From Acidobacteriota bacterium (GTDB lineage Bacteria > Acidobacteriota > UBA890 > WLXD01), in contig CAXWPH010000015.1 of the NCBI GenBank assembly GCA_963666055.2, positions 928,001-992,000 on the forward strand: a stretch of 64,000 nt of DNA. The letters are read 5' to 3'. Below are positions 33,681-39,462 of the stretch, in pieces. Numbering within the stretch: position 1 is the first letter of the stretch; every line of letters starts with the position of its first letter. Made by a program: the position numbers and the translations under genes. The notes beneath the pieces are model-generated. The model saw nothing but the letters and a program-made list of their open reading frames with translations, was not told where the DNA came from and made no database searches.

Positions 33681-34019
33681 ATGAAGTTCAACGAGCGTCG
33701 CATCGACGAGGTGGTCGTCATCGACCTGAGCGGCAAGCTCACCCTCGGCTCAGGCGATGTGCAGCTGCGCCAGATCATCCGTGACCTTCTCGACCGTGGC
33801 GAGAAGAAGATCGTGCTCAACCTGGATAAAGTTGGCTACATGGACAGCGCCGGTGTGGGCGAGTTGGTGGCGAGCTTCACCACCGCGCAGAGCCAAGATG
33901 CCAAGATGAAGCTGCTGAACCTGACCGCGAAGATTCGCGACTTGTTACAGTTTACGCAGCTGATATCCGTGTTCGAGAGCCATACCGACGAGGCGGAAGC
34001 GGTAGCGAGCTTCGACTAG
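33681..34019 (+). CDS. STAS-domain anti-sigma factor antagonist
   Basis: LSGKL, YMDSAGVGELV phosphoacceptor motif. Confidence 0.92.
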   Translation: MKFNERRIDEVVVIDLSGKLTLGSGDVQLRQIIRDLLDRGEKKIVLNLDKVGYMDSAGVGELVASFTTAQSQDAKMKLLNLTAKIRDLLQFTQLISVFESHTDEAEAVASFD

Positions 34020-34122
34020 AGGTTTGACGTCGTCGGCGCGACGCTGACCAGGTCTCGCTCAGTAGCCGCCGCAGGGGGCGGGTTCGAATGGCTGGCGGAG
34101 GCTCATCAGACGGGGGCAGGCG

Positions 34123-35025
34123 ATGCACGAGTTTCGGCTGACGCCGTCGGCGCCGTTCGGATTTGAGACCACTGCCATGTTCATGTCCCCGGGGGCGGGG
34201 GAGGTGGTCGATGTCTTCGACGGCAAGCGCTTCACTCGGCTCGTCGACGTTAGCGGCCGCATGCGCCTCGTGCTGGTCAGCAGCTTGGGTACCGGGCAGC
34301 GTCCGGAGCTGATCGTCACCCTGATGAACGGCACCGAGCGCGACGAGCCCGGCGTAGTAGCGCTGTTGTCGCGGATGATGGGCATGGGCTTCGATCCGGG
34401 CCCGTTCTACAAGCTCTGCCGCCAGGACCAGGGCCTGTACGGGCTCTCCTCCGACTTTTACGGCCTACGCCCGACCCAGAGGATGCACCCGTTCGAGTCC
34501 ATCACGCTAGCGGTAGCGAGTCGTCCCGGGCTGCATTTTTTCCGCGCCAGCGTTTCCAAGGTTGCCGAGGTCGTGAGCTACCGCGTGGCGTACGCTGGCG
34601 ATACGTTCTTCGCTTTTCCGACGCCGCGCGTGGTTGCTAAGGTAACGCCGGAGGAGATGGTGCAGTCGAACTTCAGCCTGGAACAGGCTCGCCAGCTGCA
34701 CACCATCGCTCAGGCTGCGATGAGCGGCCAGTTGGATATGATCGCGCTGGCTCGCGCCCCGTTGGAGACGTTGGTCGACCGCCTGGCTGTGTACGACGGC
34801 ATTGGCCTGTTGGGGGCCCAACTCACCGCTATCATCGGTTACGGTCGGCTGGATTGCTTTCCCTCCGCCGACCTCCTGTTGCTCGAGTGGCTGGGGCGTA
34901 ACTATGGATCCGGGACGTCATTTGAGCCCTTCGAGGCCGAGCAATGGGCCGAGGGCTGGGGCAACTATCGTGGCCTGGTAGCGTTCCATATCTACGCCGA
35001 GCTGATGGCGAAAGGTCGCCTTTGA
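34123..35025 (+). CDS. AlkA-family DNA-3-methyladenine glycosylase
   Basis: PFES, FPTP, GIG HhH, FPSAD, AEGW..YRG. Confidence 0.8.
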   Translation: MHEFRLTPSAPFGFETTAMFMSPGAGEVVDVFDGKRFTRLVDVSGRMRLVLVSSLGTGQRPELIVTLMNGTERDEPGVVALLSRMMGMGFDPGPFYKLCRQDQGLYGLSSDFYGLRPTQRMHPFESITLAVASRPGLHFFRASVSKVAEVVSYRVAYAGDTFFAFPTPRVVAKVTPEEMVQSNFSLEQARQLHTIAQAAMSGQLDMIALARAPLETLVDRLAVYDGIGLLGAQLTAIIGYGRLDCFPSADLLLLEWLGRNYGSGTSFEPFEAEQWAEGWGNYRGLVAFHIYAELMAKGRL

Positions 35026-35543
35026 TGGCGCGCACCCAGCCGGGACGTGGTCGCGCCGGGCGTTCGAGCGCCGTGCAGACAGCCGTCGATGCGTTCCGAG
35101 AATACCTCGGTCAGCAGGGGCTCCGGTTCACCCATGAGCGTGAGGAGGTGCTCAGCGAGTTTCTGCAGCTCGATACGCACGTGGAGGCTGAGGAGCTTCT
35201 CCTTCGGCTACGCGCAGCAGGATCGGCAGTGTCGCGTGCGACGATCTACCGCACGCTCGACTTGCTGGTACAGGCCGGACTAGGTCGCAAGGTTCGGCTC
35301 GGCACAGACCACTACTACTACGAGCACGTTCTCGGAGCGCGACAGCACGAGCACATGATCTGTGTCGACTGCGGCAAGATCATCGAGTGGTTCGATCGGG
35401 CGCTAGACGAGGTGTTGGAAAGGAACCTCCGGCGTCAGCGGTTCGTGGCTACTCGCTACACCGTGCAGGTATTCGGTTACTGCGACGACTGCGCGCCGCG
35501 CGAGGCGAGCGCTTCGAGCTCGGAGCGCAGCCACCGGATATAG
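35025..35543 (+). CDS. Fur family transcriptional regulator
   Basis: SRATIYRTL, HEHMICVDCG, YCDDC. Confidence 0.92.
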   Translation: MARTQPGRGRAGRSSAVQTAVDAFREYLGQQGLRFTHEREEVLSEFLQLDTHVEAEELLLRLRAAGSAVSRATIYRTLDLLVQAGLGRKVRLGTDHYYYEHVLGARQHEHMICVDCGKIIEWFDRALDEVLERNLRRQRFVATRYTVQVFGYCDDCAPREASASSSERSHRI

Positions 35544-36070
35544 GTCCGATGGTGGGGCCGTCTGTCGATTGCGCGCCAGCACAATGTCGCAACCTCCCCA
35601 CGGACACGACTCCAGTTTCGCCGCAGAAGCGTCGGGAGCGGTAGGTAGCACGGCTCCTCGTCGAGAAAGAGGGCGTCGCGTGCCAGTGTCCAAATGTCGC
35701 ACTGCACTTCGCCATGCGGCACCAACCCCAGTCCCTGCAGCAAGTGCGTGAGCTCGTGAGCCACTGTGTAGTGCGATGGCAGGCGGCGACGCAGATCGAA
35801 GCGAACGATCATGTCCTCGAATACCGCAATCCCATCGGCGCAACGCGTAATGCCGATCGTGACGGTGTGATCGTCGAGCTCCGGAAACCGCAGCAGGCAG
35901 CGCTCGAGGCGCTTCAAGAGCGCGTCGGCGCGCCTATGCTGCACCAGAGGGCGGGTGGGGCGTGCTCGGGCGCCGAAGAGCGATAGTTGGGATGTCACTT
36001 TGGAACCGTCATCGCGCAGTTGGGGGGGCCGCATTGCATCCTGGCCGGCGGCATTACAGGATCCTCCCAT
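35477..36070 (-). CDS. hypothetical protein with HExxH motif
   Basis: VAHELTHL...GE..CD; start uncertain. Confidence 0.55.
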   Translation of the reverse strand: MGGSCNAAGQDAMRPPQLRDDGSKVTSQLSLFGARARPTRPLVQHRRADALLKRLERCLLRFPELDDHTVTIGITRCADGIAVFEDMIVRFDLRRRLPSHYTVAHELTHLLQGLGLVPHGEVQCDIWTLARDALFLDEEPCYLPLPTLLRRNWSRVRGEVATLCWRAIDRRPHHRTYIRWLRSELEALASRGAQSSQ

Positions 36071-36098
36071 ACGGAGCTAGCCTACCGGAGGCACGTGA

Positions 36099-37097
36099 GT
36101 GCGTCGTCTGATTCTGTTCGCTCTTGCCGCCATCGCCGTCTCGGCCTGTCAGAACTGGGATCTGTTGCGGCCGATGGACGCCGACGGAGAGGCTGGCCGT
36201 GCCTTCACCCGCCTGGGTCCGGCGAGCCGGGTACCGCTGACCAACGCGGTCGCCTTGCGACGCCTCGAGCGCATTGCAGCGGTGAATGGCGGTGAGCGCC
36301 TGGAGCTCGTAGAAGGCTTTCTCGACGAGTTTCCGGAGGCGAGGATGTTTGGCCGCGTCCATGAGCTCAGGGGCGAAGCGCATCTCGCCGTCGGTGACCA
36401 CGAGGCAGCCGCGGGCGCTTTCGAACGAGCGCTGATGCTTACCCGAACAGACCTTCTGGGCATCCCGATCGAGAGCTCCCTTCCGTTGCAGTTAGGGCTG
36501 GCGATGGCCAGCTCTGGGAACCTGGCAGGTGGCGCCACGATGCTGCTGCGCGCCAGCGTCGCTGATCACGGCGAGCGACTCGACCGGGCGCTGCGCTGGG
36601 CGTACTCGACCGACTCTTCGAGCGCAGCGAGTTTCGAGGAATGGTTGCAGCGAGGGCGTGATCGCGTTGCCCTGACCGCACCCGATTTCTCGCTGCCTGG
36701 GCTCCAGCAGCCGAAGGTTGAGCTGCGCTCGGCGCTTGACGGGGCGACCCTGCTGAACTTCTGGTCGCCGACCTGACTGGCGTGCCGTGAGGAGTTCCCT
36801 CACCTTGACGCCATCTACCGCGACCTGTCGTCTGAGGGATTGGCGATCATCGCCATCGATGTTTCCAACGATGTCGAGCGGACGCGCCAGTTCTACGACG
36901 AGAACGGCTTCTTCATTCCGGCCGCGTTCGACCCCGGACAGGAGATTTCCGCGGGCTCATATGGTGTCATCGCCACGCCGACGAACTATCTGCTGGATCA
37001 GCGTGGACGCATCGTTTGGCGGCACTATGGGTACAAGCGTGGCGACGAGGCCGATGTGCGACGTGAGATCGAAGAAGTGCTCGCCAAGGCGGACTGA
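36099..37097 (+). CDS. putative selenoprotein: lipoprotein, TPR-like region and TlpA/ResA-like thioredoxin with UxxC (in-frame TGA 36774-36776)
   Basis: Read-through gives APDFSLP...LLNFWSPT-U-LACREEFPHL...IIAID...YGVIATPTNYLLD; both track ORFs are in the same frame; lipobox VSAC. Confidence 0.85.
36778..36813 (+). promoter_or_regulatory. candidate bacterial SECIS hairpin
   Basis: TGGCGT(36778-83)/ACGCCA(36808-13) lower stem; GTGAGG(36787-92)/CCTCAC(36798-803) upper stem; loop AGTTC; immediately 3' of the TGA. Confidence 0.7.
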
Positions 37098-37113
37098 GGC
37101 GGTGGTCCTCGAC

Positions 37114-39462
37114 TCAGGCCCTACGGCGTTGCCGGCGCCGGTTGCGCCTCTCTTCGAGGCGCATCTCTTCGATAATCACGAAGAATGCGTCGACCAGATC
37201 CTCGTTCCACTCGGCGCCACGGCCATCGGCGATGATGCCACGCGCGACCTCATGGGTGAACGCCGGGCGGTAGCTGCGGTCCGAGGTCAGCGCGTGCCAT
37301 ACGTCACAGAGCGAGATGATCTGGGAGCCGACCGGAATATCGTTGCCCGCCAGCCCGTGTGGATACCCGGTACCATCCCAGCGTTCGTGGTGATGTAGCA
37401 CTAGGGGGACGACGTCCTTCAGTGCTGGAAGTGGCTTGAGGATCTGCGCGCCGATCTCCGGGTGCTGCTCGATCTGCATGCGCTCACGTGTCGATAGAGC
37501 CCCGGGCTTCTTCAGGATCTCGTCGGGGATCCCGACTTTGCCGATGTCGTGTACAAGCGCACCCACCTCTACAGCGAGTGCATCGCGTTCGGCAAGGTCG
37601 ACCGCCGCGCAGAGTCGGCGGGTCAGGTCGGATACCTCCAACGAATGCATGCGCGTGTAGCTGTCCTTCGACTCCACCGCTTCCATCAGCGCCCGCAACG
37701 ATTGCTGCACGGCGGTGCTGTCGAGCTCCTGCTCCTCGCTGCGGAGCATGTTGTCGAGAACCTGGCGCAGCGCGTTGCCCTCCCCGGGTATCAGCCGCCG
37801 CGCGTTTACAGAGATCATTGCCTGGTACACGCGATCGTCGCTCTCATCGCCGGCCACACCGACGGAGTAGATCTGGCTGCCGCCCTCGCTCTTGGCGACG
37901 TACATAGCGCGATCTGCCGCGTCCATGAAGCGATCGGCCACGTCGCCGTCTTCTGGGAATGTCGCGACGCCGATCGACACCTGTACGGCACACGGGATCT
38001 CTTCAGGCAGGTCCTCGAGCAGGATTAACAGGCGCTCGGAGCGCGCGATGGCGGCCTTCTTGTCGAGCGGCACGAGCGCGAAGAACTCGTCGCCGCCGTA
38101 GCGACAGATCGACTGGGCCATGGGTAATGCCCGCGAGAGCCGCTGGCCGACCTGTCTAATAACCTCGTTACCGATGACGTGCCCGTGGTGATCGTTGATG
38201 GTCTTGAGGTTGTCGATATCGACCATCACGAGCGACAGTGGTTTCGGCCGCTCCTTCTGAGCGTGCTCGACTAACGCCGCGTCGAGCTCCTGGCGGAACG
38301 TGGAGAAGTTCAGAAGTCCCGTGAGTCCGTCCAGGCGCGTCCGCCGTCGCATCTCCTCGACGAGGTCACAACCCTGCAGGTAGCCGGCCACCATCAAGGC
38401 GGCGGCCTTGCAGAAAGTTCTATCCTCCTCTTGCAAGGTGAAGTCCGCACGGGCGTCACGCAGAAAGAAAGCTCCCGCCACAACCTCGTTGTGCATCACT
38501 GGAACCACGAACCAGCTGCGGTACCGGTGTGGTGTCGGAAGATGGCCGCGCACCTTTTCCCAGAGCTTCGAGGGTTCGTTGGGGTGCAACTCCGTGATCT
38601 CACCTGAGGAGAGTGTTTCCTCGAGCTCCGGATAGTGCCGCAGAGCCAGTAGCAGCTGGACGCTCTGTTCCGCGTCCTCGGAACAGGCGGCGAGGTAGGC
38701 GTGTCGGTCTCCTTCATTGAAGATCAGCGTCGAACATCGTTCGGCGCGCACTGTTTCGCGCAGCTTCATGTTCACCGAATGCAGCACGCCTTGCGGGTCG
38801 CCGGATGACAGCGCCAGCTGGCCGATTTCCAGTAGGGCCTTGGCGCGGTCTCGCTCCGACGCCACCTGACGGTAGCGATGCGCCATCTTGGTGTTGGCGT
38901 CGGTGATGCGGTTGTATCGGTGTTGCTCCCGACGTGCCTCGACGGAGATCGTGCCGAAGAACAGGCCAACGCCAAATAGGAACGGCAGGCGGATGAGCAA
39001 ATCAGTTTGCCGCCACAACAGGCTGCCTTGCCCGGCATACATCAAGCCGAAATAGACGCAGCAAACCAGTATGGTGGCGACCACGGTATAGCCGAACTGG
39101 CTGCTGATTCCGGCGATGATCAGCACCAAGAAGAAGAACAGGAAGAAGTCGTTCGTCGACTCACCGGTAAACGCCACCGCGACGGTTACGAGGGTAAGGT
39201 CGGCGAGCGTGATCGGCCAACGCAAGCGCTCCCAACGACCAGAGCGCACCGCAAGGCCGTAGCAAGAAAGGCTGGCCATCAAGGCCGCCACCATGGCGAT
39301 CTGTTGCCACAGTGCCACCGGTTGGCCGTTGCCATAGAGCACCAAATAGGCCGCGCCGATCAGCACGGTGCAGCGCGTCATGACGACGCCAGCCTGCTGG
39401 CCATCTTTGGCCACATCGGACGCTTTCACCGCACGGCCTTCGGTGTCGACACTGTGACTCAA
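37114..39462 (-). CDS. membrane GAF + GGDEF + HD-GYP c-di-GMP signalling protein
   Basis: N-terminal TM helices, DGLTGLLN, RYGGDEF, VHDIGK, HHERWDGTGYP. Confidence 0.92.
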   Translation of the reverse strand: MSHSVDTEGRAVKASDVAKDGQQAGVVMTRCTVLIGAAYLVLYGNGQPVALWQQIAMVAALMASLSCYGLAVRSGRWERLRWPITLADLTLVTVAVAFTGESTNDFFLFFFLVLIIAGISSQFGYTVVATILVCCVYFGLMYAGQGSLLWRQTDLLIRLPFLFGVGLFFGTISVEARREQHRYNRITDANTKMAHRYRQVASERDRAKALLEIGQLALSSGDPQGVLHSVNMKLRETVRAERCSTLIFNEGDRHAYLAACSEDAEQSVQLLLALRHYPELEETLSSGEITELHPNEPSKLWEKVRGHLPTPHRYRSWFVVPVMHNEVVAGAFFLRDARADFTLQEEDRTFCKAAALMVAGYLQGCDLVEEMRRRTRLDGLTGLLNFSTFRQELDAALVEHAQKERPKPLSLVMVDIDNLKTINDHHGHVIGNEVIRQVGQRLSRALPMAQSICRYGGDEFFALVPLDKKAAIARSERLLILLEDLPEEIPCAVQVSIGVATFPEDGDVADRFMDAADRAMYVAKSEGGSQIYSVGVAGDESDDRVYQAMISVNARRLIPGEGNALRQVLDNMLRSEEQELDSTAVQQSLRALMEAVESKDSYTRMHSLEVSDLTRRLCAAVDLAERDALAVEVGALVHDIGKVGIPDEILKKPGALSTRERMQIEQHPEIGAQILKPLPALKDVVPLVLHHHERWDGTGYPHGLAGNDIPVGSQIISLCDVWHALTSDRSYRPAFTHEVARGIIADGRGAEWNEDLVDAFFVIIEEMRLEERRNRRRQRRRA

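Follow-up and report, generated by a model that had tools for sequence, protein, structure and literature searches.

Gene organization and the in-frame TGA

The window analysed here is a 64,000-nucleotide stretch of an Acidobacteriota genome, and all positions refer to it unless a contig is named. On its plus strand, a GTG at 36099 starts a frame of 225 codons that is closed by TGA 36774-36776, and 106 more codons follow in the same frame until TGA 37095-37097. Read as one gene (36099-37097), it encodes 332 amino acids with selenocysteine (Sec) at position 226, and its orthologues end at the same place. Once the TGA is read as Sec, the motif becomes NFWSPT-U226-LA-C229-REEFPHL, in which the in-frame TGA occupies the first position of UxxC and the resolving Cys229 (36783-36785, plus strand) forms its second half. 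U226 aligns with the first Cys of the ResA CxxC, and distant homologues have Cys at this column. The first-pass annotation had described two same-frame ORFs parted only by this TGA, with a read-through of LLNFWSPT-U-LAC-REEFPHL followed by IIAID and YGVIATPT and with the TGA at the first Cys of the TlpA/ResA pattern. These observations were all reproduced. Judged from sequence, the two database "proteins" split by the TGA are almost certainly one selenocysteine enzyme, and Sec is nearly certain to be inserted at 36774-36776.

The first-pass annotation had named an assembly error as a possible cause of the TGA. Contigs of three public runs span the TGA with zero letter differences (these are assembled contigs rather than raw reads, and two of the runs may be the assembly's source). 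A 212-nt contig of an RNA library matches 36235-36445; it stops short of the TGA and may come from DNA, so it is no evidence of expression. Scanning 34000-37300 for promoters and terminators found nothing.

Protein architecture

The protein starts with a predicted lipoprotein signal peptide (36099-36149, plus strand), which consists of MRR, an uncharged hydrophobic core and the lipobox VSA|C17 (36138-36149), the VSAC motif already noticed in the first pass. Lipid anchoring outside the cytoplasmic membrane is therefore predicted. By pattern and hydropathy, all 22 aligned full-length order-level members carry a lipobox behind an uncharged h-region, and the lipobox Cys and the Gln at +2 are almost invariant in the order-level members. 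By the same measures, a lipoprotein signal was found in 2 of 5 aligned rows of a more distant clade outside the order (the far clade), and the other 3 start with a plain signal-peptide-like segment. The signal is followed by a flexible tether (aa 18-48, 36150-36242, plus strand), with pLDDT below 50 at residues 18-35 and 37-39 and a length that varies among orthologues.

An AlphaFold model built with 27 sequences (pLDDT 89, pTM 0.80) showed a disordered tether, a helical domain at residues 49-190 (36243-36668, plus strand) and a thioredoxin fold at residues 192-332 (36672-37094, plus strand). The helical part folded by itself reached pLDDT 92. Foldseek matched it mostly to TPR domains at E values of 3e-3 to 2e-2, with none at E<=0.001. 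VIA gave Z scores of 12-15 to many TPR domains with none outstanding, a range that is common for helical repeats, and Pfam TPR_2 matched at E 5e-4, under its cut-off. The modelled arm thus appears TPR-like but of no particular TPR family, consistent with the helices proposed in the first pass.

The thioredoxin domain was assigned more firmly, and the TlpA/ResA type suggested in the first pass holds. Pfam AhpC-TSA and Redoxin both matched over cut-off at residues 193-321, spanning the TGA. The closest structures were 3gl3 (Z 22.6, rmsd 1.6, 141 aligned residues) and ResA 2f9s (Z 21.2), and the rmsd to DsbE/ResA structures was 1.4-1.7 Å. Glu232 (36792-36794, plus strand), three residues after the resolving Cys, occupies the position of ResA Glu80 and is present in 24 of 24 order-level members. 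The cis-proline loop Thr293-Pro294 (36975-36980, plus strand) is conserved in 23 of 24, with an N in the remaining one; the cis-Pro is preceded by Thr in the order-level clade versus Phe in the far clade. The mature protein has no Cys other than the lipobox Cys17 and Cys229. All of the named NCBIfam models scored below cut-off: ResA 73.6/170, DsbE/CcmG 50.1/123, TlpA 31.9/230 and StoA 40/210. The selenoprotein models NF041054, NF053656 and NF040769 were not reached either, on both score and signature motif. Among the structural matches, no solved structure spans both domains, which does not by itself make the combination new.

SECIS hairpin behind the TGA

The hairpin begins 11 nt downstream of the TGA. 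Its upper stem-loop (36787-36803, plus strand) has 6 bp and the 5-nt loop AGUUC, with G at loop position 2, the loop lying 16 nt after the UGA, and a folding energy of -7.9 kcal/mol. In this genome a lower stem (36778-36783/36808-36813, plus strand) extends it by base pairing. Section 5 of PMC13188914 gives a bacterial SECIS model with a stem of 4-16 bp, a loop of 3-9 nt, G in loop positions 1-2, a distance of 16-37 nt from UGA to loop and MFE <= -7.5, and the hairpin at 36787-36803 satisfies this model. The matching geometry was also found behind the TGA of the FdhA gene of this genome. Folding energy of the region did not stand out (z -1.24, with 27 of 200 shuffles doing equally well) and is therefore uninformative as SECIS evidence, so that selection carries the case. 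A generic hairpin filter also fired after 21/1890 TAG and 3/335 TAA junctions, a false-positive background of about 1%.

Selection on the hairpin was evident at synonymous sites. Among 24 order-level sequences, only 67 of 1656 same-residue codon pairs differ within the hairpin (4%), versus 3446 of 7602 (45%) over 46 flanking codons, and the hairpin is the lowest of 48 windows. Its six codons are nearly invariant, CGT, TTT and CCT among them. Across 51 distinct sequences, pairing was kept in 301 of 306 cells (98.4%). The covariation score was 0.509, compared with 0.128 after shuffling and no more than 0.164 with slid partners, and both sides change in 4 of 6 pairs; this score is to be read with the caveat that the structure came from the sequences scored and that kin are not independent. 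Codon +8 takes its third base according to the second base of codon +5 in 52 of 52 cases (Glu-CCT 26, Val-CCA 16, Ala-CCG 9, Ala-CAG 1). The bacterial SECIS prediction that the first-pass annotation had proposed as a check thus gave a hairpin that fits the model, covaries and constrains synonymous sites.

The stem is absent in 4 of 5 Cys-codon loci. The fifth (L126:1531-2991, in genome G028) is a TPR-TlpA homologue in which the hairpin sequence known from the Sec clade is still whole; selA, selB and tRNA-Sec are all present in that genome. The hairpin is probably a remnant SECIS after a Sec-to-Cys change, of the kind described in PMC1794560.

Selenocysteine machinery and selenoproteome

The genes selA, selB and selD were found in the genome, all over NCBIfam cut-off, the selD being an Ndh-SelD fusion with CxxC. 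Two near-identical copies of tRNA-Sec with UCA anticodon were found over the Rfam cut-off, and these are the sole UCA tRNAs of the genome. The Sec machinery that the first pass had suggested looking for is therefore complete here. Both tRNA-Sec copies lie within a 6.2-kb stretch that is duplicated at 99.9% identity (G000:C6:1847-8030 and C13:60001-66190), and near-identical selenoprotein gene pairs (DsrE, WxxUAGC) also occur on two contigs. The pairs and the duplicate together suggest strain or assembly duplication. ARAGORN reported a tRNA-Pyl(CTA) at G000:C5:65608-65685, which looks more like a degenerate tRNA-Arg(TCT).

Each of the 24 further genomes of the order with the gene has selA or selB. 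selA was missed in 2 of them (72 and 69% complete) and a full selB in 4, one of which has a piece at a contig end. Searching with both the family model and the SelB of this genome gave EF-Tu-like matches only in G012 (95% complete, 10 contigs), G015 and G020. The four genomes without full selB, these three included, do have selA and tRNA-Sec.

The selenoproteome of the genome is large. Of at least twenty TGA read-through candidates, 20 (L062-L081) were put to Pfam and NCBIfam, and 18 of these gave a family match across the TGA. These are FdhA, SelW, four DUF3179, two deiodinase-like, WAxxUGC, WxxUAGC, DsrE, CUAEP radical SAM, AhpD, three Prx-like, rhodanese and MBL-rhodanese proteins. L079 (no family) and L081 (the family stops before the TGA) were rejected. 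Most candidates share a short stem with an NG[GT]NN loop, and several have signal-peptide-like starts. In L080:1-1491 (G000:C7:331031-332521), a metallo-beta-lactamase-fold/rhodanese fusion, the TGA falls in GHVAGST-U-G within the MBL domain and is followed by a hairpin; a Sec located in that domain was not recognised as an entry in the table of PMC13188914. The FdhA read-through frame (L063:1-1161, G000:C3:78394-79554) stops at 387 aa, against 1009 positions in the family model, and may reflect a frameshift, a split gene or an assembly error.

Conservation and database records

The gene with one internal TGA was found in 24 of the 25 other genomes of the order, one copy being partial, and the genome that lacks it is 83% complete. 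It is retained even in the 1.2-2.5 Mb genomes of the order. In 30 of 30 loci taken, TGA stands at the U column, at protein identities of 24-90%, while the true stops vary among TGA, TAA and TAG. Of 401 Acidobacteriota genomes put through a profile search, 41 gave matches that reach E<=3e-45 and contain an internal TGA, 25 of them in the order (this genome counted) and 16 outside it. Across 57 locus-derived homologous domains, the U column holds TGA in 52 and Cys codons in 5. Members from other orders are longer, at about 450 aa; FWFPT-U-GG-C is the commonest of their motifs, and some copies have a possible plain signal peptide. In genome G037, seven or more TPR/TlpA proteins are Sec copies (L059, L060, L127); some stand in tandem, and some have Cys paralogues, a TonB-dependent receptor and CARDB/Kelch proteins next to them.

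More distant homologues have Cys at the U column, as in 24 database proteins placed in the tree, and several of the Cys homologues are full-length proteins that also possess this helical arm (e.g. P0023-P0025, P0032 and P0041). The homologue alignment suggested in the first pass thus gave TGA in all close relatives and Cys in distant full-length ones. A quick tree (81 rows, 149 columns, careful search unfinished; the partial L019 and L022, identical to L021, left out) recovered an all-Sec order clade of 24 rows with SH-aLRT 100. Its deep forks are open, and therefore no direction of Sec/Cys change is claimed.

In the databases, 40 of 40 sampled truncated proteins end exactly before the U column. 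One GenBank half carries the name "tol-pal system YbgF family protein". The protein database searches returned no full-length Sec-annotated record, although U-bearing records can escape such searches.

These data bear directly on how the TGA is read. If it were a real stop, through a split gene, a pseudogene or an assembly error, as the database annotation has it, the thioredoxin fold would be cut ahead of its active site. Behind the TGA there is no conserved start, but residues are kept there while synonymous sites vary, and the same TGA occurs phylum-wide and in the contigs of the public runs. Some 225-aa product is likely when selenium is scarce; a stop as the main reading is the least probable of all the alternatives considered. 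Decoding mainly as Trp under a variant code, or as Cys by a UCA-anticodon tRNA, is also very improbable. Cys does work at this position in distant homologues, and in three genomes with the gene the search found no selB, which would suit such decoding. However, TGA is the commonest stop of the genome, ending 933 of 1790 long coding-like ORFs and closing this same gene, which speaks against a variant code; the only UCA tRNAs are the tRNA-Sec matches, and a selected SECIS would be left without purpose.

Genomic neighbourhood

A Fur-family regulator gene (35025-35543, plus strand) lies upstream and co-directional with the selenoprotein gene. Together with AlkA it forms an upstream same-strand syntenic block in 13 of 14 order-level neighbourhoods. 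In three loci the Fur-family gene is directly adjacent, with 83-103 nt from its stop to the lipobox Cys. No NCBIfam Fur, PerR or Zur model reached its cut-off for this neighbour, which is slightly nearer to Fur than to PerR. Between the two genes of the window, a 197-aa ORF lies at 35477-36070 on the minus strand; it has no Pfam or NCBIfam match, carries an HExxH-like motif (VAHELTH) and has relatives in only 3 other loci. In the far clade, two copies are divergently oriented to a PerR-like gene accompanied by KatG or catalase, a weak link to stress.

Beyond the Fur-family/AlkA synteny no operon partner was found. In 20 neighbourhoods (crude gene caller, 35 neighbours through Pfam), no ccdA, dsbD, ccm, msr, peroxiredoxin or client neighbour was seen. 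Away from the gene, the genome encodes CcdA with both Cys, VKOR and a DsbA-like protein, and at least four other Cys TlpA-like proteins with hydrophobic N-termini. Its ccm cluster is on contig C7 (L134:5000-11800, G000:C7:101003-107787) and comprises ccmE, F, H-like, A, B and C, a zinc-ribbon protein and a 391-aa unknown, with no ccmG found, while the selenoprotein gene is on C15. Of 17 genomes of the order searched for ccmF, 16 have it. DsbC_N was not found in 5 of 5 genomes searched, a weak absence, since the control matched in E. coli only.

Proposed function and alternatives

We consider that the protein may well be a CcdA-fed extracytoplasmic disulfide reductase or isomerase whose TPR-like arm binds exported proteins as clients. 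This reading was chosen because of the ResA/DsbE fold, Glu232, the Thr-cisPro loop and the CcdA, VKOR and DsbA-like protein encoded in the genome. PMC5909903 describes Glu at +3 as the mark of the reductases CcmG, ResA and StoA, which receive their electrons from DsbD or CcdA; disulfide isomerases, according to the same paper, conserve a Thr ahead of cis-Pro. The far clade has Phe before cis-Pro, and therefore the isomerase hint is limited to the order-level clade.

The mechanism would run as follows. SelB-tRNA-Sec would act on the hairpin 16 nt downstream and insert Sec226, a step very strongly indicated by the sequence. The protein is then predicted from its signal to be exported by the Sec pathway, lipidated at Cys17 and displayed on a tether of about 30 aa. 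By family knowledge, electrons would pass from the cytoplasm through CcdA to the U226-C229 pair. The selenolate would attack a client's disulfide that is wrong or oxidised, and Cys229 would resolve the intermediate or the client would reshuffle. In an oxidising compartment, Sec would let the nucleophile stay ionised and withstand over-oxidation. In the weakest step, the TPR-like domain would bind the client much as CnoX does, perhaps taking over the part that the dimer cleft plays in DsbC. A point against CcdA feeding is that the four or more other exported-looking Cys TlpA-like proteins could take CcdA electrons, and if the lipoprotein reaches the outer membrane, a shuttle would be needed between CcdA and the protein. 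A bolder version, which we regard as unlikely, is a seleno-chaperedoxin: a monomeric lipid-anchored replacement of DsbC, with a TPR holdase presenting misfolded envelope proteins to a Sec/Thr-cisPro isomerase site. It would be a core gene of the order and would make envelope folding selenium-dependent.

Two other roles were weighed against disulfide reduction or isomerization of envelope clients. The protein could serve extracytoplasmic oxidative-stress defence without a folding duty, reducing an Msr or peroxiredoxin partner, as Etrx1/2 do, or reducing peroxides directly via Sec. Etrx2 is among the structural matches (Z 17.7), the Fur-family neighbour recurs in the order loci, PerR-like and KatG/catalase genes stand by the two far copies, and several other exported-looking selenoproteins of the genome need a reductant. 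On the other side, the neighbourhoods examined hold no msr or peroxiredoxin gene, the order's Fur-family neighbour leans slightly to Fur with all models under cut-off, and UxxC with a resolving Cys is a thiol-disulfide exchange motif versus the TxxU peroxidase motif, as given in PMC13188914. We therefore rate this role as fairly unlikely. Still less likely is a dedicated thioreductase of cytochrome c maturation, standing in for CcmG with a TPR arm like that of the apocytochrome chaperone CcmI. The lack of ccmG in the ccm cluster, the spread of ccmF through the order and Glu at +3, a CcmG/ResA signature, would fit such a role. But ccm genes adjoin the gene in 0 of 20 neighbourhoods, and ccmF was not found with the far-clade Sec copies of G031, G049, G064, G037, G054, G069, G068 and G228. 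The genome has four other Cys TlpA-like candidates for the role, and Thr-cisPro is atypical of CcmG according to PMC5909903.

Relation to known systems

Selenoproteins with this kind of catalytic domain are already known. Table 1 of PMC13188914 lists a Prx-like thiol:disulfide oxidoreductase (PF00578), a thiol-disulfide isomerase-like family (cd02966) and a redoxin family (PF08534), and its predicted UxxC TlpA/redoxin selenoproteins share with our protein the Pfam domains, Sec first in UxxC and a bacterial SECIS. What differs here is the lipoprotein signal, the TPR-like arm of about 140 aa and the motif FW[ST]PT-U-xx-C-REEFPHL; the families in that table were compared by description, so that overlap with a representative is possible. 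The protein scored 37 against NF041054 (WAxxUGC, cut-off 300) and 17 against NF053656 (TUGYCR, cut-off 100).

Fold, Glu at +3 from the resolving Cys, cis-Pro loop and N-terminal anchor are like those of ResA, CcmG(DsbE), TlpA and StoA. Unlike these, the protein has a Sec nucleophile with no Trp before it, Thr before cis-Pro and a TPR-like arm, and its gene lies outside any ccm or res operon. The chaperedoxins CnoX/YbbN, which join a thioredoxin fold to TPR, are an analogy only. PMC6282202 describes CnoX as a partner of the cytoplasmic DnaK/GroEL systems and, for Caulobacter CnoX, both holdase and oxidoreductase activity; in CnoX, Trx comes first and TPR last, whereas here the TPR-like arm comes first, with a TlpA-type domain, a lipoprotein signal and Sec. 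The pneumococcal Etrx1/Etrx2 of PMC3914529 share the TlpA-type fold, the lipid anchor predicted here and the CcdA-fed reductase role proposed here, but they are Cys enzymes with no TPR arm and an MsrAB2 partner, and there is no msr neighbour here.

The main text of PMC13188914 contains none of the terms tetratricopeptide, lipoprotein, periplasm or Acidobacter, and a TPR fusion is absent from the passages searched in deep-Sep (PMC12013277), Peng 2016 (PMC5029168), GOS (PMC2398784) and BSepDB (PMC13326102). No description of a TPR-thioredoxin or a lipoprotein TlpA selenoprotein appears in the literature searched; catalogue entries and supplements may bear on the novelty of the architecture. Exported and lipoprotein selenoproteins are described in other families (SaoX; bioRxiv 2022.07.06.499078), and therefore the location alone is not new. 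The first-pass annotation had not recognised the architecture as characterised. This stands for the lipoprotein-TPR combination, which appears new to the papers, as far as their available text goes, and to the NCBIfam models compared; it does not extend to UxxC TlpA/redoxin selenoproteins, which are already catalogued in Table 1 of PMC13188914.

Significance

Our results correct a systematic mis-annotation, since the databases hold this clade solely as truncated halves, just as the first pass had expected of standard pipelines. Relatives occur in 41 of 401 Acidobacteriota genomes, and a family model is therefore deserved. The hairpin also provides an unusually clean natural covariation set for the bacterial SECIS, in which the choice of residue at +5 settles which synonymous codon is used at +8. 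If the proposed mechanism is true, selenium would have a share in the quality control of envelope proteins in these bacteria, a role without counterpart among the characterised bacterial selenoenzymes in the available text of PMC13188914.
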